DNA from: Minutocellus sp. GHC0000111
Taxonomy: Eukaryota
Assembly: GCA_977018835.1 (NCBI GenBank)
Contig: OZ361260.1
Location: 3,720,001 to 3,784,000, forward strand
Reading direction: 5' to 3'
Length of the DNA stretch: 64,000 bases
Shown: piece by piece, positions 17,708-64,000 of the stretch
Position numbering within the stretch: the stretch's first letter is position 1
How the letters are laid out: every line of letters begins with the position of its first letter
Program-made: the position numbers and the translations under genes
Notes under the pieces: model-generated
The model's input: only the letters and a program-made list of their open reading frames with translations
Told to the model about the DNA's origin: nothing
Database searches by the model: none

Positions 17708-17887
17708 CAGTCCGGCCACACCTATATAAGGATATTTTTTTGGAGAGGTAAGCTTGGAATATCCTTAATTAGAATAAGGATTTCTAAACACCAATTGATA
17801 AGAAATGCATAGAAGAATAAGGAACATGTCCGAAATTCCAAGCTTACCCTAAGGATAAAAAATATCCTTATAGGTGTGGCCGGACTG
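17708..17887. mobile_element. Tc1/mariner/pogo-type MITE, 180 bp, TA TSD
   Basis: TA|CAGTCCGGCCACACCTATA ... TATAGGTGTGGCCGGACTG|TA is a perfect 19-bp TIR, extending imperfectly to about 50 bp (AAGGATATTTTTT, GGTAAGCTTGGAAT). Confidence 0.9.
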
Positions 17888-29097: not shown

Positions 29098-29330
29098 GGT
29101 GACAGCGATAGTCGGTCGACAACGGCAGCCACACAAGAGTGTCGTCCCGAGATCGATGAGATAGTCCGATCGAGCAGCGCGGTATCTACCGCATTTCTGA
29201 ATGATCCGCATTTCTGAATGATGCAAAGATGACGTGTAAATTTCCCACAAACACTTATGCCCCCTCCTCTCGTCAGTTGAGCGAGGCCATAATAAAGCAA
29301 ACTGAAAAACCAAGAAGGAAGCAAGGAACG

Positions 29331-35300: not shown

Positions 35301-38300
35301 GAAGAGCAAAGGCGACGACGAGGATGAGGACGACGAAGACAAGAACGAGCAGAAGCAGAGAGTTATACTCACTCTTGTGGCTAAATATTTGTCTCGCAAG
35401 GGTGACTACAAGGAAGCACTGGCTTGCTACGAGGATCACATGCTATGGTACCCGACGATGCTCCGGACCGCGTCGAGATTGTATCCGATGATATGTTTCA
35501 GATGGGCAATCTTTGTGCTCGGATGCAATTGCTCGACATGTCCATCGAACACTTCCAGGAATGCCTCGAATGAGGAAGAAGGAAGGCGACATGGAAGAGG
35601 GCGTCGCAAAGGCACTTTTCAACATGGCCGTTGTTCAGGAGAAGAAGGAAGACCACGATGCCGCCATCAAGTCTCTCCGAGAAGCTCTGAAATACTACAA
35701 AATGAAGCAGCTCGACGTAGATGTGGCTTCCACACTCAACAAGCTCGGCCGCGTCCAGGAAAAGATTGATCATTTCGAGGAGGCCCTCGAGTGTTACACC
35801 GAGGCGATTGAACTTCGACGTACTTCGGCGTCTGGAGAGGAGGAAAAGATTTGGCCATGGCGTCGGACCCTCCATGACTATGCGAGTGTTCTTATCAAGT
35901 TGGGCGCTGACGACCAAAAGGCCCGGGAGATCCTTGAAGAGTGCTTAACAATCCGATCATCCAAGGCCTCCAAGGACGACCTCAAGACGTTGTGGAATCA
36001 CTTCATCTGTTTGCCGACTTGTCAATTAAAAAGGGAGGATATCAAAAGGCGATCAAATTCCTCAACCGCATCTTGGCTGTTTGTAGAGAAAAGCTCGGAA
36101 ACGATCACAAGGACGTCGGCGGATGTCTACACTCACTAGGCCTCGCCCACATGGAGAGGGGTGAGATCGATCAGGCACTGGACTATCTCACTGAGAGCCT
36201 TGCCATCCGCAATGAGTCCTTTGGCGAAGAAAGTCTCGAAACAGGAGCAACTCTGCATATTCTCGGACGTGCATACCGGAAGAAGGGCCAAAATGATAAG
36301 GCGGCTAGCGCCCTCGTTCGAGCTCTTCGTATCCGAAAGGTTGAGCTGGGCAATGACGCATTCGAGTGTGCTCAAACGCTTTGCAGTCTCGGCGAGGTCC
36401 AAGAGGCCATGGGCAAGAACCAAGAAGCGTTGAATTGCTACAATGAAGGCCTTCGTGTGTTCCGATTGGAAGAGGGCAGGAAGAGCCTTTCGGTTGCCGA
36501 GGCCCTCTTACGCACCGGGCAGCTGCTCATTAAAATTGACAAGCCCGACGCGGCTCTACGAGACCTCCGAGAAGCTTTGAGCATCCACCAAAAGCTAGAA
36601 AGCGGACCTCAACGCGAAGCCGACGTTCTGCTCAGTATTGGAAAGGCATATGCTACCAACGGAAGAACAGAAGTGGCGCTAGAAAAGTTCAAGACCTGTC
36701 AAAAAATTCGCATGGAGGAGAACGGCGAGGATCACGCCTCGGTGGCTCACGTGCTCGTCGAGATTGGCGAATTATCAGAATCGCAAGGTGGCCTCCAAGA
36801 AGCCCTGGGATGCTACAATAAGAGCATTCGTATCTATCGGAAGCGTCTTGGCGATCGCGATGTTCAAATCGCCAAGTGTCTGAACAAGGTAGCTGCAGTT
36901 TACACCGAAGAAGGCGATTTCGGCGAAGCTCTCGGCGCATGCAAGGAGGCTCTTACCATCTACAAGGAGGAGCTACTGCAAGGCAGTGATGCCCTCGAGG
37001 TTGGTCACACGCAGCATCAGATTGGAGGGATTTATGACCAATTGAAACGTTTTGATGATTCCCTGGAATGCTTCACAGAAGCGCTTCGCGTTTTCGAGCT
37101 CAATCTCGGTGAGGATGACCTGACTGTTGCTCTTGCTCGAAATAATATGGGCATCAACTACGCTCGGCGCAAGGACTATAATAAGGCCATCGAACTATGC
37201 AGCGAAGCGTTGAGAATCCGTAGACTTCACGCCGAGGAGGGCGATCAGAGTGGCTGCGACGTAGCCGATACCACCTTCAACCTTGCCAGTATATACGATG
37301 AGGCCGAGAATTACGACAAGGCCCTCAAGTTGTACGGCGAGGCGCTGGCAGCGTATCGCGAGAGCCTCGGTGACGATGACATAGAGGTGGCCAATTGTCT
37401 CAAGTTCATCGGCGTCATTTTGGTCTCCCGAAAGGATTTCGAAGAAGCCCAGCACACACTTTTGGAGGCCGTGCGTATCTACAAGGCCGAGGACTCCATT
37501 CGCCACAACGTGGACCTAGCAACCGTCCTGTACAATCTTGGTTTGGTCTACGAGAAGCGCCAAGATTTGGAGAAGGCACTCAATTGTCACGCACAGTGTC
37601 TTCGCATACGAAAAGCAGAGCTAGGCGAAAACGACAAGGACATTGCGCACCCTGCCTTGCACATTGGTTCCATCTACCTCCCCCGTGGTAAGGTCGACGA
37701 GGCTCTGGTATTTCTCAATACAGCCCTCGAGCTCTACGGAAGTGAGTGGGGCAAGGAGAGTTCTGAGTACGCCGATGCCCTTTCCAAGGTGGCCGCAGCC
37801 CACATCGCTCAGGAAGAGTATGATTTGGCCCTATCGGAATTGCATGCTTGTCTCGGTATCTGCAAGAAGAAGGATGGCACGGGTGACGCCGAGAACAGCG
37901 AAAAGATCGCCAACATCCTGTCCTTGATCGGTACGATCCACAATAGACAAGTTGAGTATGAAGAAGCGATGAAGTTCTACTCAGGCGCTCTTAAAATTCG
38001 AATCAAGTTGCACGGCAAGAATCATGAGAAGGTTGCCACCACAATGATGGAAATTGGCAACGTTCTTGAGGACTGGGGCGATTCCGACGAAGCCCTCGAT
38101 TGTTACTCCGAATGTCTGCGGATCCAGCGATTGGGACATGGCGACGAAAGTATAGCAGTCGCCGAGACTCTGAACAAACTTGGCGGTGTCTTTGCGGAGC
38201 GAGAAGAGCACGAAAGGGCACTCAAATCATTCGACGAAGCTCTCACCATCTATAAATCTCATCTTGGCGACAACGCAGTGGACGTTGGCCACACCTGGCA

Positions 38301-39078
38301 TCAAATGGGCAAAGCTCATGATGCACTGGAGCAGCACGATGAATCCTTACATTGTTTTACAGAAGCCCTCCGCATTTTCAGGACGCAACTAGGTGAAGAA
38401 GATCTGACCGTGGCGCTTGCTTTGAACAATGTGGGCGTCAATTACGCCCGGCGAAAGGAGTATGCCAAGGCTATCGAGCTCTGCAGTGAGGCGCTTCGAA
38501 TCCGTAAAGTCCGTCTAGGCGAAGGGCATTTGGACATCGCCGACGGACTCTACAATCTTGCAAACATCCTCGACGAATGGCGACGATACGACCAAGCTCT
38601 TAAGTTCTACAGTCAGGCCCTTGCAATTTATCGCTCCAATTGTCTAATTTGTCTACAATTCATGGGAAGCATCTTTATGAAGGAGAACGAGCACGACCGA
38701 GCTCTAACCTGCTTCAATGAAGCCGTTCGCATTTATCGGCAGAAAGACGGCGGAGAAGACGAGCTTGCCGGGACATTGTTTTATCTGGGACGGATATTTG
38801 TGAGTACCGTGAAAGCTGATGGCTACTGCTTGTCGTGTCTATAGCTTGTCATCTCTTACTATCTTTCTCACCTCTCTCACCTCTTTTGCGTTTCAATCCA
38901 TTCCTTCTTCATCACCTCCACACCGCAGGCTAAGAGAGCAGAATTCAAGTCAAGCCTTGATTGCTTCACCGAGAGCTATCAGCTTAGAAAGAGCCAGCTC
39001 GGCGAGAACCACGTTGACACAGTCGAAGCTGCCAGATTCGTTGCAGCGATCGAACGAAAGCTCCACTCTGGAAGATAG
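29331..39078 (+). CDS. Giant TPR-repeat protein (KLC/nephrocystin-3-type ~42-aa repeats) with an acidic N-terminus; introns 33519..33654, 34811..34911 and 38800..38928; several frameshifts
   Basis: Dozens of EALRIR..LGEDHxDVAxTLxNLG repeats across ORFs 29229, 33614, 35083, 35513 and 35941; canonical GT..AG introns; last exon ends at TAG 39076-39078. Confidence 0.85.
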
Positions 39079-40649: not shown

Positions 40650-42419
40650 CTATTTAGTTTCCGGACTAACATAAAATAACGCGGCAGTGAGATAGTTACC
40701 AGCAGGATAACTTGCGGGGCTTTGAGTGTGACAGGGTGCGGCACCACTCTTTCGAAGCAAAGTGACTTGTCTTCCAGCTGCAAGCGCAGCGTTTTGGACA
40801 GTTTGCAAAAAGAAGTTGCCACCATCCTTCTGGGTCATTGCACCTGAACACGTGCACGTCAGTAGCAAACCTCCCTCCTTCCTATCAATAATCTTCATGG
40901 CATCGCGATTCAAAGCGTGGTATTTGCGCGATGCTCTATCCAAACCAGAGACTGATGGCGCCAGCTTTGGCGGATCCAGCACAATGACATCATACTCCTT
41001 TGCATCGTCATTCGCATCCTTCATATACTGGGCAATATCGTCTCGAAGGAATTGTATCCGGCTATCGTCCAGACCATTGAGCTCGGCGTTAGCGATAGCC
41101 GCATCAATGGCATCCTGTGACGAATCGACGCCTGTGCAACTCGAGGCTCCTCCATGCACCATGGCATTCAGTGCAAAGCCTCCGTTGTAGCAGCACAGAT
41201 CCAGGACTCGCTTGTCATCGCAAAGCTTGGCCACATCCAATCGATTGTCTCTCTGATCACAATAGAAACCAGTCTTTTGAGAACTCCCGAAAGGATACGT
41301 GTGGTATTTCACGCCGGACTCTGTCACAATTACGCACTCGTCATTACCAGATTCATCGCCATCGGCCTCTGACAACTCATATCCATCCTGCTTGAGAAAG
41401 CTTGGAGTGTTTCTCCACACAATTTCAAGACCATCTTGCTCCGAGTACAGAGGGTGTTCCTTCAGCACGGCATCGAGTGTCTCCAATATCGTTGCCTTGT
41501 GAATCTCCACCCACGCTGCAGATGACATTACTACAGCCACCTTGCCGCCCAGCACATCCACCGCAAAACCCGAAAGGCCATCGCCTTCGCCATTGACAAG
41601 CCGATAGCTGTCGGTAGAATCCGAGGGAAGATTGAGAGACAATCGCGCCTGGATGGATTCATGCAGCTTCGTCTGCAGAATGAGGGCAACTGCCTCTCGC
41701 TCTGCCCCCTCCTCATCGTTGGCATCGTCCTTCATCGCCGCCTTCACCTTCTTCAAGAGCGCTCCGTGCGACGATCCATGGCACAAGATGCGAACTCGAT
41801 ACATTGACAAAGGATTGTACATGCCAACACCAATATCTTGCGCCTGCTTGATCATTTGCGCTTCGTCGCTCTTGTCGTCACTAATGATTTGATGAGGGAT
41901 CTCAGCACGAGCCGCATCGCCTCCACGGCCGCCGCCGCCGCCGCCGCGACCACCGCGGCCTCCTCTTCGCCGATCTTTGCCAGATGATTTCTTCTTGTTG
42001 TCGCCGGCATCTTTCTTGGGACTTACAGCTACCAGTACCAGCGATCCCATCTGTAGAGTCGAGGTGGAGGATGGGCCGCCACCCAAGCTAAATGTCGATT
42101 CGATCGCCCCCGAAAAAACAAGCGGAGAACCATTACGGAACGCCATGCTTTGCTTGTTGCGCCGAACGAGGACCACATCATGTGAGTTGTTGGGTGGCAA
42201 CGCTGATTCGTCAGCGGTAGTAGTCTCGTCAGCACCCTGCTCGATGTCGGCAGCAGTAGATGAAAGGAGAGAGGGATGAGAATTCTGATACCAGCGGGCA
42301 GCAGCAGACTGTGGATAACGGCTCAGCGCTGGCGACGAGAACGCATGTGCTGCATATCTGGGCTGATGACCAGCCTGATGCCGGAGAGCGGCAAGCAGAG
42401 CAATCGCAAGTACTCTCAT
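40650..42419 (-). CDS. RlmI-like 23S rRNA m5C methyltransferase, probably plastid-targeted
   Basis: YRLVNGEGDGLSG, QKTGFYCDQRDNR, VLDLCCYNGGF, YDVIVLDPPKLA; presequence MRVLAIALLAAL..AHA-FSS. Confidence 0.88.
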   Translation of the reverse strand: MRVLAIALLAALRHQAGHQPRYAAHAFSSPALSRYPQSAAARWYQNSHPSLLSSTAADIEQGADETTTADESALPPNNSHDVVLVRRNKQSMAFRNGSPLVFSGAIESTFSLGGGPSSTSTLQMGSLVLVAVSPKKDAGDNKKKSSGKDRRRGGRGGRGGGGGGRGGDAARAEIPHQIISDDKSDEAQMIKQAQDIGVGMYNPLSMYRVRILCHGSSHGALLKKVKAAMKDDANDEEGAEREAVALILQTKLHESIQARLSLNLPSDSTDSYRLVNGEGDGLSGFAVDVLGGKVAVVMSSAAWVEIHKATILETLDAVLKEHPLYSEQDGLEIVWRNTPSFLKQDGYELSEADGDESGNDECVIVTESGVKYHTYPFGSSQKTGFYCDQRDNRLDVAKLCDDKRVLDLCCYNGGFALNAMVHGGASSCTGVDSSQDAIDAAIANAELNGLDDSRIQFLRDDIAQYMKDANDDAKEYDVIVLDPPKLAPSVSGLDRASRKYHALNRDAMKIIDRKEGGLLLTCTCSGAMTQKDGGNFFLQTVQNAALAAGRQVTLLRKSGAAPCHTQSPASYPAGNYLTAALFYVSPETK

Positions 42420-42615
42420 GGCTATTCTGTGGCAAGTCTGCGCCAAGGGGCGTACAATCAGCCAAAAATTTGGACGGCGCTGGCTCAATGTCAATGATTG
42501 GACGGGAGACAGCAAGACGGCGGTTTTGCGGCAAGATCGAAAGCAATGATTCGCGCAGAGCAGCAGCTCCATCATATTTTCTTTTTGCTTATTGTCTACA
42601 TAAAGTACCAGCCAT

Positions 42616-46372: not shown

Positions 46373-48264
46373 CTTACGAAGTCCGTTTCGCGAGAAATCG
46401 AGCGCAGGGCCGGGACCAAAAAATGTCGATTTTTGGGCCCGCAACCCGGACACGGACACATGCATGTAAAGCCGGAACCATCAAAACTGACAAGAGAGCA
46501 CTACACATGCATGTACGGCATGTGTGTGTAGTAGCACAAATATAGCTCGAATCTAAATAATCTAGTATTATTTTAAACATAACATAACTTAAAAGCACCG
46601 CAGGACTAATTATCCATGGTTGGATCAGCAGGAGGAGGAGCGATAATTTTCCCATCTATCCGAACCATGCCATTTTCAGTCGGCCTGAAATCCTTTCGCA
46701 CCCCAACATGAATGCCTTCACCGTTTCCAAGAAAATCATTGTTGCCTTTTGCAACGATTACCTTCTTTGCAATTCTATGAGCCTGGATGTATGCCGATGC
46801 GATCTTCCAGTTTTCCAGCCCCATCCAAACTTCCTCCGCTGCATCCCAAGTCTGATCTTCTGTCAAAACCTTCAGCCCCTCCCGATCGCGGCTCAACATT
46901 GTATGCCGCTTTGACATGCAAGGGAAAACAGACAGATCAAGAACATTCATATGGGGCATTTGCGGGGCCTGAGGTTCCCAACGCCATCCCTTGTCCCGAC
47001 AGTATCCTTCCACATATTCCACAAATTCAGTCTCGGCATGGGGCCCAGCATTGTCGCCCTGAAAAATAGGGACATAGCCTTCAAACTTTCCACCAGGTCC
47101 GACCAAAGCCTCAACATCCGGAAACATCTTGTTCTCAAATAAAGCTTTCAGTGGGAACTTGGGATTATCAAGGGTGCCATGGCTGCATCCAGTCACCGCG
47201 CAATCCACAAGGTATAGATCGTCTTTCTTCCGAACCACCGGGCCGCAATATTTGATTCTACCATCTGCCTGCCGCACCGCCTCCCTTACCATCTGCCTCG
47301 CAATTTTATGCGCCTGAGCCCGAAAAAGTCCAAGCTTGAACGCAATGCCGCCATTCTCAATGCTGTCAATAAAAGCCAAGGCAGTGACAGCCACCACCAT
47401 GCACTTGTTGATGTGATTTCGGTGATATGCCGAGAAGGACCGAGGATCAATACCCAATTCTGCAACTTGCTTGGCATACGATCGAAGAACCAAGCCCCAA
47501 AACCACTTCTCATCGAACATAATAAGGAGAAACTTGCCACCGCCGAGCCCCCAATTGTTTCGGAATTTCCGCGCAAATGCCAAATGTTTCTCCATCTGAT
47601 GGGTAGTAAGGAGAGGGATGATCCTTTCGGCATAGTACCGGAACCCTTCCCGCGACATTATCCACCGCCGTATTGCCGAGTAGGAACACCAAAAGTTGAC
47701 ATCCACCTCCAGCTCCCGCCAAGATTCCCGAGGATTTCGTATCAGAGCATCAACAATAACATCTCGAATGTATGGCTGCATAGCCAGATGAGATCTCCTC
47801 TTCATCTCCCACATCGCCTTCTCAGATGCAGGTAGAGCACCATACGCCTTCATCCATCCCGAAAATCGTGCACCATGCTCTGCGCTGGACAGCACCGAAT
47901 AGTCCACCTTTGCCTGCTCCCTGCACTTGGCAATTGCAAAGAGACATGGTGCAGTATACCGCCGGGTCGCCGTTGCAAGATCGTCGATGACAGAACGGAA
48001 GGCGGCCGAATCAGATGAATCATCGGCACTCGTTGGGAAGCAGTATACCGGTCCAAGTGCGACGAACGCGTCCATTTGATTAGAGCCGCTGAAATCTAAA
48101 GTCTTATCCGAATTATTGTTTCACATGAAGATAAATCAAAATTAGAGTAAAAATAGCCATTTTCTTAAATATTTCAGCATGACTATTCTTCGAGGCGCTT
48201 TTCAATCCCCTCGAAAGCAGTCAAAAACCGGGCGCTCGATTTCTCGCGAATCTGACCTCGTAGG
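46373..48264 (-). mobile_element. Mariner-like DNA transposon, 1892 bp, 33-bp imperfect TIRs, TA flanks
   Basis: TA|CTTACGAAGTCCGTTTCGCGAGAAATCGAGCGC (46373-46405) versus GCGCTCGATTTCTCGCGAATCTGACCTCGTAGG|TA (48232-48264), 29/33 match. Confidence 0.9.
46606..48075 (-). CDS. IS630/Tc1/mariner transposase, DD38D
   Basis: FDEKWF..QGDNAGPH..QAPQMPHMNVLDLSVF with 38 residues between the second and third Asp; motifs resemble plant-type DD39D mariners. Confidence 0.9.
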   Translation of the reverse strand: MDAFVALGPVYCFPTSADDSSDSAAFRSVIDDLATATRRYTAPCLFAIAKCREQAKVDYSVLSSAEHGARFSGWMKAYGALPASEKAMWEMKRRSHLAMQPYIRDVIVDALIRNPRESWRELEVDVNFWCSYSAIRRWIMSREGFRYYAERIIPLLTTHQMEKHLAFARKFRNNWGLGGGKFLLIMFDEKWFWGLVLRSYAKQVAELGIDPRSFSAYHRNHINKCMVVAVTALAFIDSIENGGIAFKLGLFRAQAHKIARQMVREAVRQADGRIKYCGPVVRKKDDLYLVDCAVTGCSHGTLDNPKFPLKALFENKMFPDVEALVGPGGKFEGYVPIFQGDNAGPHAETEFVEYVEGYCRDKGWRWEPQAPQMPHMNVLDLSVFPCMSKRHTMLSRDREGLKVLTEDQTWDAAEEVWMGLENWKIASAYIQAHRIAKKVIVAKGNNDFLGNGEGIHVGVRKDFRPTENGMVRIDGKIIAPPPADPTMDN

Positions 48265-48500: not shown

Positions 48501-48811
48501 GGTCGCCGGCGCTGAAGAAATTGTTGGAGCCTACTTTTATCAGGTAATGAGCTCCCAGATCAACTCCATAGCGCTCGGATCGGAAGGGTTCGCACGATGA
48601 GCCGGGGATCGGATGCGGATGCGGAGCGGAGGCGTCGCGTCGAAGAATTCCCATCATCAAACCCGCCAGAAGATCACACGACCGAACGCCATCTCGTTTC
48701 ATTCGGACCTGCTCCCATTCACAATTAAAAAACGAAAACTTGAAGAACGCAATTTACTCAATTCCAACAATTACAATCGATCGATCGAAACAAAAGACCA
48801 AACGATAGAAC

Positions 48812-51800
48812 ATGATAATAGTGCGCAGAGCCATTCTTCTCGCTGTCAACATGAGCCTGGAGCTTTTGGCCGCGCTCCAGAACTCCAGCAACACCTTAAG
48901 TACTGGTGTCATCCTCGACGTTGGCAACCAGACGTATCAGGTGGTTGGTGGGAATTTCACCATAGTCCCCGGCAGTGACTTGGAGATCGACGTGGTCAAT
49001 CAAACAAATCTCGATGAAGGATTGAACGACAGTACTTCTACGCCCGGCGAAGACGAGAACCCAATCGTTACACCAGGAATACCAGCAGATATCGACGCCG
49101 ACGATGAGATCGAAATCTACCCAGAACCACGAAATTCAACTGATGTAGTGGGAACCTCGGATTTGACCTATCATGACGAGACATGGCATGGAAATCATCC
49201 CGACGATGAGCCATCTCGTTGGGTTCTCATTGGATCAGCACTCGACAATCTCGGCGAAGAGTACTGCATGGAAGTCAGAATGCCCGTGCATAGTGGGCAG
49301 ACCATCGGTGTGAGCATGTGTGATTGGGCGAAGGAAGAGCAGCTCTTCTTCTGGGAGGATGGAAAACGCATGCGACCTTTCCTCGATATTAGTCTGTGCG
49401 TTGACGCCAACGACGGATCGTGGCCAAGCTTGCGAGACTGCGAAGAGAATGGACCGCACCAACGCTGGGATGCAGGTAGTTTTGACGGAGTGCATCTCTC
49501 CCCAAGAACGCACCCGGACTCATGCCTAAAGCCCACCGAAGTTTCGAGAGGTTTCATAGAAAATAGCTCGATGGAATACGGGAGAGTGCGCAGAATGGAA
49601 GAAACAGAATTTTTCAGCAGAAGGTTCGGTCAGTGGCGAAACAGAACAGCAAGAAGAGCAGAACGAAGATGCCATTTGGCCCTCCGAACCAACGGCGGCT
49701 CTTTCTGAATACGTCTTTTTGATCAATCGAGCGCACGATTATGATGATCCCGATGCCAAGTGCTTGAAGGCGAATGATAGAGGTGAAGTTAAGTTGGTCG
49801 AATGTGAGGAAGACAATTACAAGATGCACTGGTTGAACGATGATTTTGATTTGTCTGATGAAAGTGCAGCAGTCCGACTAAGACCCAGGTCTGATCCTAG
49901 CACTTGCATCACTCGAGGTGATATTGACAAGCCGCCTTCGGATATTCATTGCTGTGTTGACGATACTCGCCTCTACATGAGAAGTTGCGACGGGAGCTCA
50001 GAGCAGATGTGGCTATACGACCGAACTTTTGGCTACCTTTCTCCAGCAGACTACGAGACCCTATGCATTGCATCTTGGTTCAACCCACGAGTAGGTCTCT
50101 CCTATTGTGCATTTGGTGCCATCGAAGAACAGTCATATGGTGAATTCCGGTTTGACCTAGTCGATCCAGCGAGCGGCTTGACAAGGCCCGCAGCCGTCGC
50201 CGAGGACGCCGACAACATGTTCTGGGTTGAGGCTACTGTCAGTCAAATACCCCGCCGGCTTTGGTGCAGTGTTTCTGATGGAGGACAAAATTGCAAGGTG
50301 GTGGCCGAACAGGATGACGACGGCGATATTGACGAAGATTTTGAATCTGTCGATGCCATATGGTTGAGAGACGACAATGACCGTCTTCGGTCTGCGTCCG
50401 ATACCAGTATTTGTCTCACCTACGATAGTGCTTACAGCAATCTGTATGCCACAGCATGCTATCAGTACAGAGAGGAGGAGCAGATTTGGCACTATGAAGA
50501 CAGAGGGAACATGGAACTCTCTCCAAAGGGAAATCCAAGTGTTTGTGCTGTGGCAAAACTTGGTGATGATCCACCAGTAGAAAGTTGTGGCAGCAGAGTC
50601 AACAAACAATCGTGGAGATTTGTTCCGTTCAACAACGAAACCCCCGAAGGTCCTTCTTCTTGTGATGAGGGCTTAGTAGATACAAATATGATTGTTTGGG
50701 AAGGCGGTGAAGGCTACTACTGTGTTGAAGCTAGCGACGTTGATGAAGGAAATGAGCTCGAACTCAAGAAGTGCGACGCATTGAATGAAAATCAGCTCTT
50801 CATCTTCGAAAACCATAAATGGATGTCCAAACGCAATCCTGATCTTTGCATACAAGCGATCAAAAATGAAGATACTGAGGGCATGAGGGTTCCCATTTTC
50901 ATGCCATGCGATGGGTCACTGAAGCAGAAATGGATATTTGGTGAAGATGGTGCGATAGTGTGGGGCAAGGACGATAGTCTCTGTGCCTCCTACCACTTTG
51001 ATGGCGAAAGGTCTTGGTTCTATAATTTCGGCCTGAAAACTTGTTCCAATGAAGAAAACAAAGACCAAATGTTTCAGCTTGTGAACCCAAAGGATTACAG
51101 TACTCCGACGCTGAACTATGTCCTCTTGTCCACCAAGAATGATTTGTCCTGGGCGATTTCCTGCTATCCTGATCATGAGGGTAAGTAATACTAGTAGCGG
51201 AACAGTGTGTGGAACTGATCATCATGCTTAAAAGCTGGGAAAATCTCACTCACTGATCCATTTCCCTCTCTTCTGAATTTAATTTTCCGTAGAAAACACT
51301 TGCCCGGGTTACCGAGAGATTCGGCCGACATATGGTAAATTTTATGAGGGCACCAAATGGTTTATCGAAGAAATGAAGAACGGAATCCGTCTTCGAAGAG
51401 GTGAACCTCGAGGTCCAATGCTGAAGGTGGACGGGCAGACCCTTTGGAAGTACAACCCGAATAGTAAGGAGTTGAAATCAGTTGCGAACGGGCAGTGCAT
51501 AGACAATAGAGGGCAGATAGGCAAACCATGCGAACCCTTTTGCGAAGAATGCGACTCATATTCCTGCTACGGTTCTACGGGCGACCTTACAATGGCGGAG
51601 TGCAATGGTAAGGTAAGGCAGCAATGGGTCCTCCAAGACGCCGATGACTTTTTGTACAGCCATGGTTCTGACTTCGCAGGCAAGCCTAACGAGAATGACT
51701 TCCATCTGTTGGTATCCTCGAAGGATAACGACTTCTGCGTTGGTGCAAAAGATCCATATGCGAGACACCCCGACGGTGAAATACTGCTCATGAGATGCAA

Positions 51801-52167
51801 TCCAGCTGATCCAAAGCAAGTATGGACTATCGAGACCGTCGAAGGAAGGAAAAGAATTCGTCTGAAGGCCAACCTCAGCTTATGCATGCACGTTTCTAGA
51901 GTAGAGCTGTTACAAACGCTTCATCTCGAGGAGTGCAATGATCTTCAGCAAAAGCAACACTGGAACCATAAATCAGAAGACGGTGAAATATCCGCCGCAA
52001 AGAATGGCAATTTGTGCGTTGGATTTGATTATGAAGACGGTTGTCTCCAAGAGGGAACTCCGCTGCAGCTGCTTCCTTGCAGCAACGGAGAGAGTCCTGA
52101 GCAAAGCTTTGATTTGGTGCGACCAAATGCTTACTTAGAGCGTCCGAACAGAGGTCGAACGTGGTGA
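48812..52167 (+). CDS. Large multi-ricin-B-lectin (beta-trefoil) repeat protein; intron 51181..51292; frameshifts near 49580-49710
   Basis: Repeated C-x(10-15)-C..QxW/F units (CDWAKEEQLF, CEENGPHQRW, CDGSSEQMW, CDALNENQLF, CNGKVRQQW, CNPADPKQVW). A GTAAGT..TAG intron joins ORFs 49719 and 51373 in frame. Confidence 0.75.
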
Positions 52168-54700: not shown

Positions 54701-56486
54701 TTATACATGCCCTGCTCCCATCTCTACATCCTCATCTCCATCGGTGGCCATCATGATCATTTGTTGGCGCTTGTCATCAGTTTCTGCTTTAACAGCTTCG
54801 GTCCTTGTCCTTTTCCTTGTTCTTGCCACCCGAGAGTTTCGCTCCCGCCTCTCCTCGACCTTTGGATTGGATGCCCTCTCCTCAGCCTTGAACTGCGCCG
54901 TCTGTTGGGCCTCATGTCCCTTGACGCCCTGAGTCCGACGATCTTCCTTAACGCCCTCTTGGTGGGCTCGCTCTACAAACGATTCGTCGAGCCAATGGAT
55001 GCCGCCCCATCCATTCTTCACTAGCCAAATGTGTTGGTCCAAGATGTGATCTTCGAGCAAGTGCCACTTGGGCGTCATGCTAACATGCCGATTGCCCGTG
55101 CTTGCTTGAGGGCACTTGCAATCAATGCTTCAAGCTCTCTCACAGCCTTCTTTGCCTCATCATCCCATTTCATGTGCCATTTCAGAAACCTGGAACATGT
55201 TGCGTCAAGAGTGTGGAGCAAATTAGAGCAAGCTTTGCAGAGCTCTTTGATGTCGTCATCCGTCATGCCATCTTCCTCGCGATTGTGCTCTAGGAGAGTT
55301 CCTTTGGTGGAGGTGTTATGGTGGATGAACTCTATTGTCCTTGGTTTCTTCTTGTTGTTGCCATCAGAAATGTTAACAGATAAAGCTCTCCAGCATTCTG
55401 CCAGCACTGCCCTTATTTTACCTGAGTCGGCCGCCTCAATGCCGGCCTTTTTCAGGAAATGGAAGTGAGGGGCATCGTCATCCTCGGCATCATCGACAGC
55501 TCCCATCTCTGGCTCGCCATCACCGTGCTTCTGACGACTCTTCTCAAAGCACTGCTGCATGCATGCTTCATGTGTAGCGTCCTCTCTTGCAACATCAGCT
55601 TCGTCCTCATAACAGGGCACATAGTCCTCGTCTTCGTCGTCATCGTCCTCACTGATCTCGCCGGCCTCCGTCGTGGTCAGGGTGCCCACCGTCCCAACAT
55701 CGTCGTCATTGTCCCACCCATCGTCCTGCCTGGCCATTGCACACCCACCAGGGAACTTCTGGGCCTCGAGCAACATCTGCCTGTTGATTTCGTAGTCCAT
55801 CGCCGCACATCCCACCGACATGTGTGGTGCGACCGACTTGAGGAATGCATTACATGCCTTCGTCAAATTGAGCCGCGGCGGCGGCATTTCGAGGCGAAAT
55901 TGTTGCTCGACCGTGACCATGTCGAAAGCCATCCATCCATCATCATGGAGAGCGTCGGCTGCACGAGGATTGACAGAACCGAGGCGAACAAATGTGCTCT
56001 TTTTGCATGGGGTTCGCTGAACGTCGTCGGCAAGGCAGTGTCTTGATGCCATTTCATCCCATCCATTCTGGTTGTCTGTCCTCACAAAAAACACATCGCA
56101 GTCTTCGTGTTTCTTCTTCTTCAAACCCAAGATGCCCGCAGTGTGCACATGACGGCGCCGTACATGATGGGACTGCATCCCAACACATTCATCAAGGAGT
56201 CGTTGTTGTTGCCGATGAAATTGTAGTAATGAAGTTCCTTCCTGCGAAGACGGACGAGCAGTTCAGCCAGGGCGTCCTGCACCGCAATTCTGTCTGCGGT
56301 GTTGACCGCGGGATTGCGGCCGTCATTTTTTTTGCTCATGGAGAATTGTGGATCGAGACCAACGGGAATATCACCAGGATGTCGGGAGTGCCTGGTTGGT
56401 CTCGTGCCGTAATTCTCCCACACCAGCGCGAGATATCGCCTTCGTTCTGCACGTAGCGGGGCGGCAATTTGAATTTTTGCCGCCAT
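54701..56486 (-). mobile_element. Degenerate DNA-transposase remnant (Transib/Chapaev/RAG1-like C-terminus)
   Basis: TPKWHLLEDH..GIHWLDESFVERAHQ matches the HxxxxH..ExxExxH end of Transib/CMC-type transposases; broken over three frames. Confidence 0.55.
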
Positions 56487-56700: not shown

Positions 56701-57777
56701 ATGGTCATCCGATCATACCCGCGCTTTATTCTGATTGCATTTCTTCCAACGGTTTTGAATTGTGCAGGCGCTTTCGTGCTCGATGGTGTGCTAGTGTCAA
56801 GGCCCTCACATTTAACGAGAAAGAGGAGCAGACAACTTGCCTCTACTTTCACCGACATTGGAGACAACAATGTGACGCCACTTGAGCCATCTGATGACGA
56901 CGAAAACACCGATTCCGAAGCAACATTATATGGATGGACCGACGACCAGTTCAAGTCTTGGTTTGGAAAGGAGTTGGCTGCTCATCCACTCATGGATAAG
57001 TGTCCTCGGATGCAAGCCACGGCACCCAGGGCAGCAACGGCATGGAGGGCACGATATCGTGGCAACCCAACCCTATGGAGACGAGTCTTTACGGTCGATC
57101 GCGTTATCAAGGAGTTGGTCGAAGCTGCGCCGATATTGGATGCCGTGATTCAGATTGTCGATGAGGCTGACATCGACGAGACGGGCAACCTCACGGCATT
57201 GGACTTAGCAAGTGGACGGGGCTTTTTGAGCATGTATCTGTCTGAAATTCTGCCAAAGGAGAAGGTGGAGAAGATTATACTGGTTGACAAGGCATGGCCA
57301 ATGTGCAATGCAAACGAAGTATTGCCACATCAAATGTCATGGGAACACATCTATGGAAATCGGACAAATGCTTTGGAAGATGGCGATGGGAGTTCATCTT
57401 CTTCGTCGACCTACTTTGACACATGGCCAATCCATTTGCATACGTCCAAACCAGATCTCAAGCAAAAATGCACCAAACGACAAATGAAGAAGTTCATGTT
57501 CGATCGAGCACCCGGTCCTGTGCTGATTTTGGCGGTCCATCTCTGCGGCGCATTGTCGCTCCGTGCGGTGGAAATGTTCAATGACTATCCAGACAAGGTT
57601 CAATTTCTCGCCCTAAAGCCCTGTTGTTTACCTCCAATGGCCTATGCCAATAGAGGCGATGTGTTTGAAATCGGCCAGCATAGCTTTGATGCCTCTGATG
57701 TTTGTGCTGTTGGTCGTTTTTTGGGCACTAATTATGCACTTTGGGCACTAATTATGCACCACAAACGGCGCAATTGA
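56701..57777 (+). CDS. SAM-dependent methyltransferase-like protein, plastid-type presequence, possibly 3'-truncated
   Basis: ALDLASGRGFLSMYL, ILVDKAW, ILAVHLCGALS, LKPCCLP; presequence ..NCAGA-FVL. Ends in a 20-bp tandem repeat. Confidence 0.7.
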   Translation: MVIRSYPRFILIAFLPTVLNCAGAFVLDGVLVSRPSHLTRKRSRQLASTFTDIGDNNVTPLEPSDDDENTDSEATLYGWTDDQFKSWFGKELAAHPLMDKCPRMQATAPRAATAWRARYRGNPTLWRRVFTVDRVIKELVEAAPILDAVIQIVDEADIDETGNLTALDLASGRGFLSMYLSEILPKEKVEKIILVDKAWPMCNANEVLPHQMSWEHIYGNRTNALEDGDGSSSSSSTYFDTWPIHLHTSKPDLKQKCTKRQMKKFMFDRAPGPVLILAVHLCGALSLRAVEMFNDYPDKVQFLALKPCCLPPMAYANRGDVFEIGQHSFDASDVCAVGRFLGTNYALWALIMHHKRRN

Positions 57778-57796
57778 AGACGAAGTGTGCAGTACC

Positions 57797-57999
57797 ATGG
57801 GCTTCGAGACGTCGCTCTTCGTCTCCCAGCCTGTGGACGACAATTTGACGTGCTCGCTATGTCTCAACGTTTTTGACAAACCGACGACAGCATGCGCAAA
57901 TGGACACGTCTACTGCCTGAAATGCCTGACCAACGCCAAGAGGCGAAGCAACGCCTGCCCCGATTGTCGCCAGCCCATGATCGACCCGCCCCCTCTTAA
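57797..57999 (+). pseudogene. 5' part (RING finger) of a TRAF-type ubiquitin ligase gene, split by a transposon
   Basis: MGFETSLF..CSLCLNVFDKPTTACANGHVYCLKCL..CPDCR (C3HC4). Confidence 0.85.
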
Positions 58000-58123
58000 G
58001 AGGGCGCTGTCCATAATTTTCCCCGTTTTTAATCCCCCTTATTCTTATTTCTTATGACGAGCGAAGCATGACAAAAACTCGACCCCACCATGAGAATCGC
58101 CGCTCTGCCCCCTCTTCATTACG

Positions 58124-59353
58124 ATGAAGCGCAGCGCTGATAATAGTGCCGGCCCGGCCCACAACGCAGATACGCGGTTGCGGAAACTCAAGACAGATGA
58201 CTCCTGTCGCCCGATTTTGCCTGTTGACAAGAAGAAAGAGAAGGCGGAGGACAAAGCGAAAGACGCCGTTACCGAGATACTGGAGGGCCTCGCCGTCACG
58301 TTGGAGAACGACCCGAACGGACAAGGACGAGAATTATGGAACAATCCCGGCGTTGGCCATGCACTTCAACATCTTGTCAAAGCAGTCGAGGCTCGCGCTG
58401 ATAAGTATCATGTTCGGGATGATATTGATGTCGCTGCTGAGCGGCCCGGCCTCGTAGTTACCAACCTGTCCGTGGCTGATGTGAAGTTGAGGCTGACGGT
58501 CGGCATCGTCGATCAATTGCAAGATCCCATGTTTGACGCCGGACCTGAATTCTTCCCTATATTTCAACTTCATGGGAAACGGATCGATATTGGATCGGCT
58601 CTTGCTGCGCACGGCCGACCTTTCAACACCACATCGCTTACTTTGCTTGATGGAAGCGGAACGCTTATCGTCGCTCGTGTTGCCCTGACAATTACCGAAA
58701 AGGCCCGAAGTCTACAACAGGGCCATGTGATCAAATTGACAAAGTTCCACCGATGGCATGTGGCTCCATATGATGACATGCACTCTGCTGCTGGGATTGG
58801 ACTAGTTGATTTTGATATTGTTGGAATGGGCCAACTTCTGCAGGTAGATGGTGGGCCATCAGCAGCGATCAGATCGGACACGGATGCTCTTGTTGCGGCC
58901 GTTTGTGAGGAAGCCGACGATGATCCGACGGCAGCGCCGGAGGCAGACACATTCGGTAATTGGGACGAGACCAGAGAGAGGCCGCCAATACCCCCTGCTT
59001 GCTGCACTGCCGCCAACCGAAGCTGCTCAATGTACGGCACACTCTTCTTTCAGAAATGCGTCTGCGAAGAAATGCTGGTGCCGACGGAGGAGGACCTGGA
59101 GGATATCGCTGACAAATACTACGCAACCACCATGCCAGTCGAAGCCATGGCAAATAATTTGAAGAGGAACATGCTGTATTGGTACTATGCAACTGAGGTG
59201 TATCATGTGAGAGGTTGGCTTGATCGGAAGCCCTTGCCAACCTGTCTAGTCTTTTGCATTAGGTTCATTTATCCAAATGATAAAGGTGAACGATATGTTG
59301 GATTCATCCCTGGTCATCAAGATGAAGAGGAAGAAGAAGAGGAAAATGCATAA
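58124..59353 (+). CDS. KolX-like accessory protein (P2X7 cytoplasmic-ballast-like C-terminus)
   Basis: NNLKRNMLYWYY..RKPLPTCLVFCIRFIYPNDKGERYVGF preceded by a Cys cluster. Confidence 0.7.
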   Translation: MKRSADNSAGPAHNADTRLRKLKTDDSCRPILPVDKKKEKAEDKAKDAVTEILEGLAVTLENDPNGQGRELWNNPGVGHALQHLVKAVEARADKYHVRDDIDVAAERPGLVVTNLSVADVKLRLTVGIVDQLQDPMFDAGPEFFPIFQLHGKRIDIGSALAAHGRPFNTTSLTLLDGSGTLIVARVALTITEKARSLQQGHVIKLTKFHRWHVAPYDDMHSAAGIGLVDFDIVGMGQLLQVDGGPSAAIRSDTDALVAAVCEEADDDPTAAPEADTFGNWDETRERPPIPPACCTAANRSCSMYGTLFFQKCVCEEMLVPTEEDLEDIADKYYATTMPVEAMANNLKRNMLYWYYATEVYHVRGWLDRKPLPTCLVFCIRFIYPNDKGERYVGFIPGHQDEEEEEEENA

Positions 59354-59457
59354 TCATTACCTCAACACATGTAGATAACAAGAATGTGCGTAGCACGTGA
59401 GTAACAGCACACAATAAATCCATTTTTATTTACAGTGATAAAATATTTTACACGTGT

Positions 59458-61986
59458 TTACAAGCTGCCATTTTCTCTCAGTATCGCCGGCATCCAAGAG
59501 CTAACATCATTTGCCGATACACCGAAGTTTGTCTTAGCTTTCTTATTATTTCTTGCAGATTTCTTGTTGCTGCCTGGGCTTCTGCGCTTCTTTCCGGCGT
59601 AAACGACAACGTCGTCAGCATCGTCGCATTGACATTCAGCCCGAGTGTGGCCAAGCTGCTTGCATTTCTGACACTGCTGGTCAATCTTCTTCTTGCGGCC
59701 AGGCTTTGCTGGTTTCGCCTTACCAGCAGCTAGGGCCCTGTTCTTCTTGTACACATAGTCCTTGTCGTCTTTCTCGCTTCTGTTTCGCAAGGCTGCTCGA
59801 AGGCGCTTGCTGTCGCTCTTGCTCTTTTTGTGCTCATCGGTGCGCTTACGCGCAAGGTCGCCCTCGAGCTTCCGGTCAATTGCATCGAATCCATCTTTTC
59901 GGGTAGGAGAATCCCTCGATCCCAACTTTCCAAGAACTCGCTCATTGAATTCCGTACCCAGTGACTTGTGGCCAGCGGCTCTACTTGTTGCATTTGGGTA
60001 GGCGTCTGAAGCAGTCAAATTCGGCCTTTTCCCCATCGTGAACTTCGTCACCATCCCGTTGAGCTGTTCGACGCCGGTGGTAGATTCCTTCTTGCAGTTG
60101 GAGTCGGCAGTATTCTTGTTGATTCTCTTGGTTATTTCAAGCGTCATCTTGCGAATCGTGTCGTCACTAATCTCCAATATGTCGCCATCGAATTGATTCC
60201 CCGAGCTCCATTCCTCATCGAGCTTGCCATCACTCCAATCAGGATGAGCAATGCTGAGGCGAATCCAATCACACGTGTTGGTGGTGCAAAAAGTGTGAAT
60301 GCCACATTGGTGACGAACGACGGACTGGAGTTCTTTCTGAAGGAGGGCCAGATGACTTTGTTTTTCCTCCTCGGACACAGCACCATCGGGCTGATCGAGA
60401 ACGCTGTGCTTGTGCCGATCAGTAATCTTCGAAATGTCCTGTTTCGTCCGATTGATGCGTGGTCGGGGGATGGCATTAAAATTTTCAACTCCTTTGCATG
60501 CTTTTCGAAAGCCTGAGTCAATTGAATTGCTCAGATGATTAAAGTCACGGCAAAGCTCAACACCAGAAGCCAACTCATCACCTACTATGTCTTCCTGAGC
60601 GGCTGCTGCCCTAGTGATGCCTTTGCTATCGCCATCGGCAACGTGCTTCTCAACGAAAAGAGGACACGCCTGCACGCTTCCTTCATCGTCGACCAGAAGA
60701 TTCCGTCCAACATTCTCGGCCAGATGCTCCTCTGCCACACCGGGGGAGCAGGAAGAGTTGCGATAGCAGAAGCCATCATGGTCGTACAGGGCCAGCATCT
60801 CATCCTTGCTCATGTTTTTGAGCTCACTCGGCGTTATTGGATTGCCGGCTTCCCGCCTCTCCCTCAATCTTGCATTGCAGGCTCTCACGCAACAGTGGCA
60901 GCTTGCCTGAGAGATTCCCTTGTCAACAACAAGGCCAGTTTCCTTGTCTACGGCAAATACCGCTGCAGCAGAGCCAGTGTAGCAATGGCCGTAGTCGCGT
61001 TTGAGGGCGCTGCCGTCTTGGGCCACCGCAACCACCGCCGCCGTGTGCATCTCGCCGCCTTGTTCAAACTCAACAGTCTTGCTGCTAGCGGCACATGCTT
61101 TTGCCCTGTTCTCGTCAATGATTTCATCAGCTGCTTCAATAGCCGCTGCTCTGCATTTCTTTTCCACCTGTCGGGCACTCTTTTCGGTCGGATGGACGAT
61201 GTCGGCCTTCGTGCAGAAATTCATGAAGCGACTTGCGCACATGGCCTCATCTTCCGCTGCCTCCATCAGCTCCAAGTTCATTCCAGCCTGACTTCTAGAA
61301 TGCTTTCTGCCGGGGCACACAACTTCTGACCTCTGGCCGATCCAAGTGCAAAAAGAAAAAGGTTGGTTGCATCTGTCGCATCGCCATTCAAATGTGACGC
61401 CGAATCCACGCCGAACTGGCTCGGCCGAGAGACACAGATTGCCGCACGATCGGTGGAGATTCTGTGCGAAATCACACAGCTGCTTCATCTCAACCACAAT
61501 TCTTTTGCCGTTGAGCTGCACGCCGGTGATGTTGGGACGATCGGTAGCGTTGGCGGTGGGAGTAGATGACCGACCGCCCGAAGAATTCTTGTCGGAATAA
61601 CATTTCAGTGTCGCGTTGAGATGGGGCCCATGCTTTTCATCGTCCTGGAAGCAATTTTCAGGCATGGTCGGCAGTGATCGCTTGCCATTGCGTTGAGAGC
61701 GTGGGCTGGCGTTATCGGCTATTCTGGAGAAGCGGTAGAAGGGCTTTGCAACGTCAAGGCCTGATATTTTCTCTGGACGTCGTCGTTGGATGTTGACCTC
61801 GTGTCGTGTTGGGACGTGTTGAAGAGATGATCGAACAAGAGAGATCTCTAAGCTCGGCGATGCGCCACCGCGCATCAAGATGCGGACAAGCTCATCAACA
61901 GTGTAGTAAGTACATCTGACGTCGTCTGGGAATGAGAGCAAGAGTGAGAGGATTGCCTCCTTGGCGTTAGCACGTGATGTTTCCAT
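59458..61986 (-). CDS. Kolobok-type DDE transposase with a C-terminal CCHC knuckle
   Basis: VAQDGSALKR..ETGLVVD..CHCC..CYRN..VADGDSK..NH..TTGVEQLN; CQKCKQLGHTRAEC; 842 aa uninterrupted. Confidence 0.8.
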   Translation of the reverse strand: METSRANAKEAILSLLLSFPDDVRCTYYTVDELVRILMRGGASPSLEISLVRSSLQHVPTRHEVNIQRRRPEKISGLDVAKPFYRFSRIADNASPRSQRNGKRSLPTMPENCFQDDEKHGPHLNATLKCYSDKNSSGGRSSTPTANATDRPNITGVQLNGKRIVVEMKQLCDFAQNLHRSCGNLCLSAEPVRRGFGVTFEWRCDRCNQPFSFCTWIGQRSEVVCPGRKHSRSQAGMNLELMEAAEDEAMCASRFMNFCTKADIVHPTEKSARQVEKKCRAAAIEAADEIIDENRAKACAASSKTVEFEQGGEMHTAAVVAVAQDGSALKRDYGHCYTGSAAAVFAVDKETGLVVDKGISQASCHCCVRACNARLRERREAGNPITPSELKNMSKDEMLALYDHDGFCYRNSSCSPGVAEEHLAENVGRNLLVDDEGSVQACPLFVEKHVADGDSKGITRAAAAQEDIVGDELASGVELCRDFNHLSNSIDSGFRKACKGVENFNAIPRPRINRTKQDISKITDRHKHSVLDQPDGAVSEEEKQSHLALLQKELQSVVRHQCGIHTFCTTNTCDWIRLSIAHPDWSDGKLDEEWSSGNQFDGDILEISDDTIRKMTLEITKRINKNTADSNCKKESTTGVEQLNGMVTKFTMGKRPNLTASDAYPNATSRAAGHKSLGTEFNERVLGKLGSRDSPTRKDGFDAIDRKLEGDLARKRTDEHKKSKSDSKRLRAALRNRSEKDDKDYVYKKNRALAAGKAKPAKPGRKKKIDQQCQKCKQLGHTRAECQCDDADDVVVYAGKKRRSPGSNKKSARNNKKAKTNFGVSANDVSSWMPAILRENGSL

Positions 61987-62342
61987 GGTTGTTTTTTTGT
62001 TTTGTGTCGGTTCTGGCGCAAGACACGCTTTTCGATGAGAGCCTTACAAAAAGAACCCCAAATGAGGGAGACGTGCAAAAATACCCCAAACAAATATCCC
62101 CTTATGTCCGCATCAAGATGCGGACAAGCTCATCAACAGTGTAGTAAGTACATCTGACGTCGTCTGGGAATGAGAGCAAGAGTGAGAGGATTGCCTCCTT
62201 GGCGTTAGCACGTGATGTTTCCATGGTTGTTTTTTTGTTTTGTGTCGGTTCTGGCGCAAGACACGCTTTTCGATGAGAGCCTTACAAAAAGAACCCCAAA
62301 TGAGGGAGACGTGCAAAAATACCCCAAACAAATATCCCCTTA
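61871..62342. repeat. 234-bp tandem direct duplication (61871..62104 and 62109..62342)
   Basis: The copies appear identical by eye and are separated by TGTC; they cover the transposase ATG region. Confidence 0.92.
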
Positions 62343-62702
62343 CCTCCCAACAGCAAAACTTCAAGATATCTTCCCACCAGCACCACCAATGCTGGTTGTG
62401 CGTCGGCCGAGACTAATTTCGGTCGATCCGACGATGGAGCGCTCGATGATGTGCACGTCGACCACTGTGTTTCTGAGGGAGAGTTTATTCATCGAAGTTC
62501 CTCTGAACCAAGTGTTCCTGGAGGGATTTCCGACTTAATGCTGAAAGGAACGTCGATGACTCTTCGCCACTGTGGAGAGCGGCGGCCTTCGATGAGGAGC
62601 CCATTGTCACGTTGGAGTGCTAACTTTGGCGACGGTGCGAAGAAAAAACGGCACAAAACACGCTTTTTGGGGGGCTTCCTAAAAGTTATGGACAGCGCCC
62701 TC

Positions 62703-63853
62703 TAAACCGCCCTCTTCAGAAAATGATCGACAGCCTGAAGATCAAATGTGAGCATAACGATTCAAAGGAGGGCGATGGCGACCAGCACCGGCCTCCCTCG
62801 TCACGCCGCCGGACAACTGAAAGCGGCGAAGCCGTGGACGGCGAGGCGAAGGAGCCCGAGGCATGTGCGTGGGAGGGCCCTGTTTCGGAGTACCGCCAGC
62901 ATGTCAAATCCTGTCCGTTCCGAGTAGTCCAATGCCCATTGAAATGTCGCGCTAGGTTTCAGCATCGATTCCTACAACACCATAAAGAGAACGAATGTCC
63001 TCGTCGCACTGTCACGTGCGAACAATGCGGCAAAAACAACATTCGGTTGGGGGGGATGGACCACCACAAGAACCATCAGTGCCCCGAGGCTGATGAGCAG
63101 TGCGAATACTGTGAACTTCAGATGAAGCGCAAGGAACTTGGCACTCTGCCGTATCTTGCTCAGGATGCGCTCACGACCAAGTGCCAAAAGTCTTTCTCTG
63201 GACACTACAAAGTATGCCCAAAAGTCCCAGTTCAATGCGAGTTTTATGGCGTTGGTTGTAGACATGAAGGAGCGCGGGAAGATATGCGTGATCACCACGC
63301 CGACAATGCTCGGTTCCATGCGAAGCTGGTAAGCGATGCCATCAATTGGCAGTCTACAACGGCGCATTGGGATGTATCCCCGAGGCTCATCGCGGGCATA
63401 GAAAATCGTGTCATTGACAGTCCACCAATCCCTGTCTTCGGTCTGCCTTACCAGTTCTTTGCTCGTCTCCATTTGGATGGAGAAAAGGTTGAGATTGAGC
63501 TACGCCTCCAAGAGGCACAGCAGCCGAATGGCGTCGAACGTCCAACCGTTTTGTTGCGAGATATCTCAATTTCCATCGACGCAGGCTATACCCTATGCTT
63601 TGCAAAAGGTCTACAGGATGGTGAGATCAAAGCAGTAGGCCCTGACACAGACAGCGTCGGAATATCTGCATTCTTTTGCAAAAGAAGGGAAAACGAAGTG
63701 AATTCATCACATGATGGCGAGGAAATTCAAAGAGTAAGAACAACCGTTGTCGAAGTCACAAGAGCAATGATCCAAGAAGAATCCGACGATGCCCAATTCA
63801 CTATCACCTTTGATGTGAAGAAGAATGTTGAGCATTTTTTAGCATCTCGGTAA
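62703..63853 (+). pseudogene. 3' part of the RING/TRAF zinc-finger gene
   Basis: LNRPLQKMIDSLKIKC..CAWEG..HVKSCPFRVVQCPLKC..ECPRRTVTCEQC..CPKVPVQCEF (TRAF-type zinc fingers). Confidence 0.85.
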
Positions 63854-64000
63854 AAAGGACTTCAATAAAAAATCTCTCTCGATCTTGGACTGGTCCTCCA
63901 GCTAGATCCATCTTGTGTGCACATCAAATTTGCATCTGTCCTTTGAAATATACTACGTAGCTAAATTGAGCTAGTCCACTAGCTAGAGTCCGCGAAACAA

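Follow-up and report, generated by a model that had tools for sequence, protein, structure and literature searches.

The Kolobok superfamily is described as differing from piggyBac in its RR..YY ends, and its Kol0 type, represented by Kolobok-1_XT and listed for animals, encodes beside the transposase a second protein, KolX, which spans P2X7 residues 476–595 and has 7 conserved Cys (PMC9587614). In the same source a CCHC finger after the first catalytic Asp is limited to KolobokP, KolobokE, KolobokD, Kolobok5 and some solitary families, the Data S5 row of Kolobok-1_XT being without one, and the KolobokP transposition pathway is called unknown. We found no tested function for KolX in the literature. 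Here we describe a 4,703-bp element at positions 58000–62702 of a 64,000-nucleotide stretch of Minutocellus sp. GHC0000111 (contig OZ361260.1, positions 3,720,001 to 3,784,000; hereafter the window), which an earlier note had read from the sequence as a Kolobok-type transposon splitting a RING/TRAF gene. We put a probability of about 0.78 on the following reading: a full-length, two-gene Kolobok of a many-copy family lies at the single TTAA of the RING/TRAF gene, of which an empty allele survives; the insertion likely inactivates this allele, and the second open reading frame (ORF2) is predicted to encode an adaptor, consisting of an OB fold and a KolX tail, that likely assists the transposase.

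The element and the host gene around it comprise the following features, in window positions.

57797–57995, plus strand: 5' part of the host RING/TRAF gene, 66 codons with the entire RING finger (zf-RING_UBOX, E 3.4e-08; Sina_RING, E 5.1e-08)
57996–57999, plus strand: left target tetramer TTAA, the only TTAA within the two gene parts
58000–58016, plus strand: left terminal inverted repeat (TIR), GAGGGCGCTGTCCATAA, 17 bp perfect, 20/21 matching to 58020
58124–59353, plus strand: accessory ORF (ORF2), 409 aa, with helical N-terminal part, OB fold, acidic linker, Cys cluster and ballast/KolX-like tail
58472–58882, plus strand: predicted OB fold, aa 117–253 (VIA-align Z 12.5, root-mean-square deviation 2.6, 119 aligned; Foldseek E 2.5e-04)
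58991–59308, plus strand: Cys cluster and KolX/P2X7-ballast C-terminal motif, about aa 290–395, with C301 and C312 invariant in 59 rows
59458–61986, minus strand: DDE transposase, 842 aa (PF20700, E 3e-19)
60492–60706: 215-bp segment deleted in many other copies (deletion joint 60491–60707 in 4/4 runs)
61871–62108 and 62109–62346: 238-bp tandem duplication with 2 differences, spanning the transposase start
61926–62343, minus strand: GT-AG intron (joint 61925–62344, ends CT..AC), seen in one contig of RNA run X7, whose short side covers 23 letters
62650–62667, plus strand: subterminal 18-bp motif, with further copies at 62015 and 62253 directly upstream of the transposase ATG copies
62686–62702, minus strand: right TIR, 17 bp perfect with the left TIR
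62703–62706, plus strand: right tetramer TAAA, an imperfect duplication of the left TTAA
62707–63853, plus strand: 3' part of the host gene, with three TRAF zinc fingers (zf-TRAF, E 7.6e-14); next ATG at 62723

Re-checking the sequence bore out the perfect 17-bp TIRs claimed in the earlier note, as well as its two uninterrupted and convergent internal ORFs (58124–59353 on the plus strand and 61986–59458 on the minus strand), whose stops are separated by 104 bp. The termini are GA..TC and thus of the RR..YY type. Since an inverted repeat of 17 bp does not settle the matter alone (chance expectation in 64 kb, about 0.12), evidence from reads was needed. Seven of the 23 listed public runs were compared with the window as assembled contigs, which collapse bubbles and drop alleles, and from which zygosity and haplotype background are unreadable. 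The empty site was found in runs X1, X2 and X3. One contig each in X1 and X3 joins 57997 to 62705 at flank depth, with 209 letters on the short side of the joint, and reads TTAA; the X2 contig shows two differences, only one of which can be placed. The sequence lost in the empty allele amounts to 4,707 bp, the element plus 4. This measure largely refutes a MuDR/Mutator-like element (MULE) sitting at TTAA by chance, a reading that takes support from the name of PF20700 (Mutator-like) and from the resemblance of CCCTCTTAA and CCCTCTAAA, beside the ends, to a 9-bp repeat. The variable target-site duplication of about 9 bp and the long TIRs that mark MuDR/MULE elements are replaced here by a fixed 4-bp target; other copies and distant relatives also end in TTAA, and a described diatom MULE has TIRs of about 200 bp and 9-bp duplications (10.1101/2023.01.02.522487). 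We consider this alternative scarcely credible.

Filled junctions were found in X5 (DNA) and X7 (RNA), from two other studies, in contigs that enter the element for 24–29 bases and cover the whole TIR. Empty and filled alleles are thus both present in public runs, which supports a recent and polymorphic insertion, as the earlier note had proposed. An old insertion, with empty alleles arising as revertants by precise excision, is quite improbable. It would accommodate an X1 empty contig identical to the window flanks over 1,505 bases, two flank variants shared by the X5 filled contigs and the X3 empty contig, and the 17 transposase residues, several of them conserved in outgroups, at which this copy differs from the family majority. 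Diploid contigs are, however, haplotype mosaics and give the same pattern, and 14 of the 17 residue differences recur in other copies, mostly at sites where T is followed by A (TpA), so they date the insertion little. The right tetramer TAAA also appears in X5 (contig 62674–62859, 0 differences) and is therefore not private to the window; its likeliest origin is a point mutation after insertion or an error of repair during it, and the change is not of the TpA type. An imperfect flank is listed for one Xenopus Kolobok as well (PMC6004289). Contigs that end at 62703 do not count towards TAAA, since runs without the filled allele also end there.

Removal of the element yields an open frame of 449 codons that combines RING and TRAF domains, with Pfam matches for RING on 57797–57994 and for zf-TRAF on 62702–63850. 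The earlier note had arrived at the same 449-aa frame by joining 57995 to 62703, reading CCT CTA AAC; the frame stands, but the real empty allele, joined as above, reads CCT CTT AAC. Because TTAA and TAAA both encode Leu-Asn, clean excision would restore the protein with either tetramer. In the filled allele translation continues from the RING part into the element and ends at 58057 (86 aa), so that, judged from gene anatomy, this allele is likely inactivated, with a RING-only 86-aa product at best. The knockout inferred in the earlier note fits that anatomy as a reasonable reading. The TRAF half is without cover in RNA runs X7, X6 and X16, which is no evidence of a knockout, since allele and expression state are undefined there. 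Another allele of the TRAF part (62860–63853) may itself be frameshifted, given one gap in the X3 empty-site contig and a 189-aa cluster member on a different contig, starting at 63284. Upstream of the gene, a Methyltransf_32 ORF has a 20-bp tandem duplication (57720–57759) close to its end, leaving 37 bp to the start of the RING part; a joint 57720–57772 in three DNA runs represents another allele at about 1/3 to 1/2 of depth.

The transposase carries D324, a CCHC finger at 363–407 (C363, C366, H403, C407), D451, DxxH at 481–484, an H/C finger at 559–572 (H559, H564, C567, C572), E640 and a C-terminal zinc knuckle, and its catalytic residues are intact in this copy. All these motifs are colinear with the Kolobok rows of Data S5 when compared by eye (PMC9587614), and the DDE triad, DxxH (D481–H484) and the zinc finger between the second Asp and Glu, likewise read by eye, are those that define Kolobok. 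A profile search with the transposase returned only the same 5 proteins and no PDB transposase. Placement in the Kolobok superfamily, with its TTAA target and RR..YY ends, as given in the earlier note, is thus supported by motifs, ends and target, by the empty site and by the other copies. The transposase has no piggyBac match in Pfam, and the RR..YY ends are not of the piggyBac type; piggyBac elements have YY..RR ends and a DDD transposase. KolobokP, KolobokE, KolobokD and KolobokH are marked by long terminal direct repeats with a His-Me nuclease, or by a PD-D/ExK, DEDDh or RecQ accessory domain; no such repeats were found in the element, and none of these domains in a Pfam scan of both ORFs. 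There was no Rfam match in 57500–64000.

ORF2 sets this element apart from its described relatives. A profile search collected 255 ORF2 relatives, of which 59, mostly long sequences, were aligned. The structural model built from this 59-row alignment reached a predicted local distance difference test (pLDDT) score of 83 and was used in place of a first model with pLDDT 44. In the predicted model the OB fold is closest to the N-terminal OB of Rfa1/RPA70 (Z 12.2–12.5) and to the TPP1 OB; ssDNA-binding OB folds rank closely after (MCM10, Teb1, RADX; Z about 9). The fold-search matches were all taken up by the OB domain and not by the tail, and the ESM Atlas gave no usable match for ORF2. The top PDB match of the ORF2 profile was the P2X7 tail, at residues 539–593 only (about 55 C-terminal residues; E 0.0014), with RPA70N matched weakly. 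P2RX7_C was matched by 22 of the 59 rows at E up to 0.1, one relative (L005) passing the cut-off, and three Cys are near-invariant across the alignment. ORF2 is therefore predicted not to be a plain KolX, but an RPA70N-like OB fold followed by only the C-terminal part of the P2X7-ballast fold, although the Cys cluster upstream of that part may represent the remainder of the ballast. Of the transposase-plus-KolX layout in the earlier note, the KolX part holds for the tail, which shares the C-terminal 55 or so residues of the ballast; the OB fold is an addition, and the transposase is not of the Kol0 type.

Like Kol0 elements (PMC9587614), this one shows TTAA duplication, RR..YY ends, DxxH with an H/C finger before Glu, and a P2X7-ballast-related second gene. 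An ordinary Kol0 element with a divergent KolX, its OB fold being a lineage add-on of no mechanistic weight, would therefore account for the two-gene layout, the target, the ends and the ballast-like tail. It would not account for the extra CCHC finger after the first Asp, absent from the Kolobok-1_XT row, for a P2X7 match confined to 539–593 against 476–595 in KolX, or for an RPA70N-like OB part that is retained in relatives at 20–35% identity. That reading is improbable, and on the strength of the CCHC finger the element is probably not Kol0. Kolobok-1_FraCyl, from Fragilariopsis cylindrus, shares a diatom host and, in Data S5 (PMC9587614), a CCHC-type transposase; its first-Asp motif, by eye, is DAGW, whereas this lineage has DGS, DGAG and DGGG. 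Its label '2p' suggests two proteins, and an overlap with this lineage is possible. No OB-fold accessory gene is described in the Kolobok literature searched, Repbase lying outside the search, and Kolobok-1_FraCyl may already hold one. The KolX-like proteins of piggyBac-2_GrCh and piggyBac-14_PI (Data S6, PMC9587614) appear to resemble the ORF2 tail in having only the C-terminal ballast motif within a TTAA-targeting transposon, but they accompany a transposase of another superfamily and are much shorter than the 409-aa ORF2.

Pairing of the two genes extends beyond this genome. ORF2 relatives were found at ten metagenome loci, and in 8/10 they face a convergent related transposase, the remaining two contigs, of about 1.2 kb, being too short to tell. 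Two loci (L001 and L007) hold complete elements with TTAA on both sides and GG..CC ends. ORF2 and transposase co-diverge over seven elements (Spearman 0.89, Mantel p 0.0008), which shows joint descent only, because the rows are related by kinship. The fusion of OB fold and KolX tail is kept beside a non-Kol0 transposase down to about 23% identity. A metagenome search with a shallow ORF2 alignment returned no relatives, and none were found in viral contigs. As separate observations, the perfect TIRs of L007 (7321–12154) measure 453 bp and contain internal repeats, whereas the TIRs of L001 and of the window element are about 21 bp long, and the transposase ORFs of L007 and L001 appear split by introns or breaks.

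DDE transposases of this family work by cut-and-paste, cleaving at the TIRs and integrating at TTAA so that these 4 bp are duplicated; the transposase described here would move the element in the same way. ORF2 would act by protein contact, docking the transposase or host replication/repair factors, because its OB fold is closest to those of RPA70N and TPP1; these OB domains bind protein rather than DNA. From the model we give such an adaptor role about an even chance. Alternatively, the OB fold may bind ssDNA and shield 4-nt overhangs or hairpins, with the flanking tetramers carried along as in piggyBac, TAAA being carried or mis-paired and excision being seamless. The close ranking of MCM10, Teb1 and RADX would fit this, as would the 4-nt flank overhangs carried by piggyBac (PMC7351741), the similar KolX C-terminal part encoded by some piggyBacs (PMC9587614, Data S6) and two non-TTAA flanks, TAAA here and TGAA in X3. 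The best OB matches are nevertheless RPA70N/Rfa1-N, no second TAAA copy is among those shown, odd flanks are preferentially picked in contig placement, KolobokP excision is reported to delete 1–5 flanking bases and the Kolobok DxxH signature groups with hAT/P/MuDR (both PMC9587614). This alternative is unlikely, if less so than the Kol0 one.

The two-gene Kolobok belongs to a large family. Depth suggests roughly 55–75 copies. Clustering by protein gave 170 members for the transposase and 71 for ORF2; 22 contigs carry one and the same ORF2 sequence, and among the members listed another copy encodes a full-length 842-aa transposase. Protein identity within the family is 95–99%; relatives at 51–57% identity exist for both genes, and for ORF2 the closest relatives with a species name come from Minutocellus polymorphus and Extubocellulus spinifer, both diatoms, which makes a diatom host probable. 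The earlier note had proposed differing ends in other copies as a point against its reading; the right ends of other copies all read TTAA in those shown (6 records in X2, 2 contigs in X5, 1 in X16), none differing and none a second TAAA, in a tally that leaves out 137 pieces. The 215-bp deletion removes HVADGD with the second catalytic Asp, leaving a dead product of 428 aa, and accounts for the 428-aa members, five among 15 listed of the 170.

The 238-bp tandem duplication over the transposase start was missing from the earlier note; it may be shared by other copies or be an assembly error. Its upstream copy brings an ATG at 62224 that opens a 40-codon ORF before a stop. Because of this added upstream ORF and of the substitutions at conserved residues, autonomy of this copy, as judged from its sequence, is doubtful; mobility in trans is likely. 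The possible mobility raised in the earlier note is thus retained for the element in trans and doubtful for this copy alone. Splicing of the intron drops the transposase ATG and keeps the frame, in a single observation, and may damp transposase output. Ahead of the transposase ATG, the noncoding stretch 61990–62108 seems to be conserved: relatives at 52–88% protein identity have in-frame N-terminal extensions from which this was judged.

The copies further carry a marked mutational signature. In a set of 17 transposase and 24 ORF2 sequences, with 34 transversions and one multi-step change set aside and frameshifted stretches masked, 55/100 distinct non-synonymous transitions were T>C at TpA, counting both strands, a class that makes up 5.7% of the opportunities, and both strand classes were seen. 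Polarised by the majority, TpA accounted for 28/64 and 25/39 transitions in the two Kolobok genes, 24/38 in a Tc1-like family (46609–48075) and 11/36 in a third family (55078–56178), against 3/35 in a host methyltransferase (40653–42575), which does not clearly show the bias. All of these values derive from differences between proteins, with at most 15 listed members taken from each cluster and with one control gene. Among conservative changes, TpA sites in repeats changed at 42/103 against 13/626 for other T>C, and in the host gene at 3/31 against 4/160 (p 0.086; repeats versus host, p 0.001). Five of nine flank transitions also fall in TpA context. CpG decay was rejected as the source of the CA/TG pairs, since outgroups keep Tyr/Ile/Val/Thr and CpG accounts for 11/100 against 11.9% expected, and a pure assembly artefact was rejected, since an Illumina RNA run carries derived states (61598, 61601–61602). 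5-Hydroxymethyluracil, for which a TA/TC preference is cited (PMC11572971) and no strong preference was found (PMC11071213), was considered as a cause, with no evidence in these data.

The closest described process is TpA hypermutation of integrated viral DNA in Bigelowiella natans, for which adenine deamination has been proposed (bioRxiv 10.64898/2026.01.13.699255). In both cases T/A becomes C/G at TpA, whichever the strand, and the DNA affected is foreign or repeated; the former was measured in mutation-accumulation lines of a chlorarachniophyte, whereas the latter is inferred from proteins of young transposon copies. The word 'diatom' is absent from the main text of that preprint. TA-to-CA/TG changes are eroding the copies here, likely through host editing like that of Bigelowiella, and the pattern is an extension of a known process, not a discovery. 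Its occurrence at about 20 times background in a family of 95–99% identity suggests that the TpA process has been recent in this probable diatom.

Several points weigh against our reading of the locus. The assignment to Kolobok draws on termini, target and a comparison of motifs by eye rather than on a tree with Repbase proteins, and the sole significant Pfam match of the transposase is named Mutator-like, while ORF2 of the window has no Pfam match at E up to 10. The ratio of element to flank depth, 54–74 in X1–X3, is a rough guide, depth not being a copy number. X1, X2 and X3 are two samples of one study and the sole source of the empty allele; the filled junctions reach in by less than a 31-letter bridging rule, and X5 may be kin of the source of the window. 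The left end that reads TGAA in X3 indicates that non-TTAA flanks are not unique to this copy, and the co-divergence was measured on few elements, two of which (L003/L006) are near-duplicates.

Elsewhere in the window, a 19-bp inverted repeat (46387–48250) surrounds a transposase with a weak Tc3-type helix-turn-helix match and a cluster of 146 members, its TA flanks not being obvious. An ORF at 55075–56178 on the minus strand, with a 57-member cluster, no Pfam match and a TA observed/expected ratio of 0.24, is probably another mobile element, and 17704–17891 is a 188-bp unit resembling a miniature inverted-repeat transposable element, with 60-nt inverted arms, 23 bp of them perfect. Runs of TPR ORFs (29205–38844) and of beta-trefoil lectin ORFs (48809–52167) each lie in several frames.

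Transposon insertion into a gene from a zinc-finger family is nothing unusual in itself. The fusion of an OB fold to a KolX tail gives a concrete hypothesis for the accessory protein, and the ballast tail may be an accessory module of broader use than the name Kol0 suggests. Tentatively, the element may typify a Kolobok lineage widespread in algae. The obligatory second protein of that lineage would mimic the OB domain through which RPA70 docks proteins, would bear the ballast tail that accessory proteins of the two TTAA-targeting superfamilies have in common, and would recruit host replication/repair factors to the transpososome. If this were true, the young family of the element, its live and dead copies and a gene that it can leave without protein change would for the first time offer tractable material for studying the Kolobok mechanism and for following TpA editing under way in a diatom.

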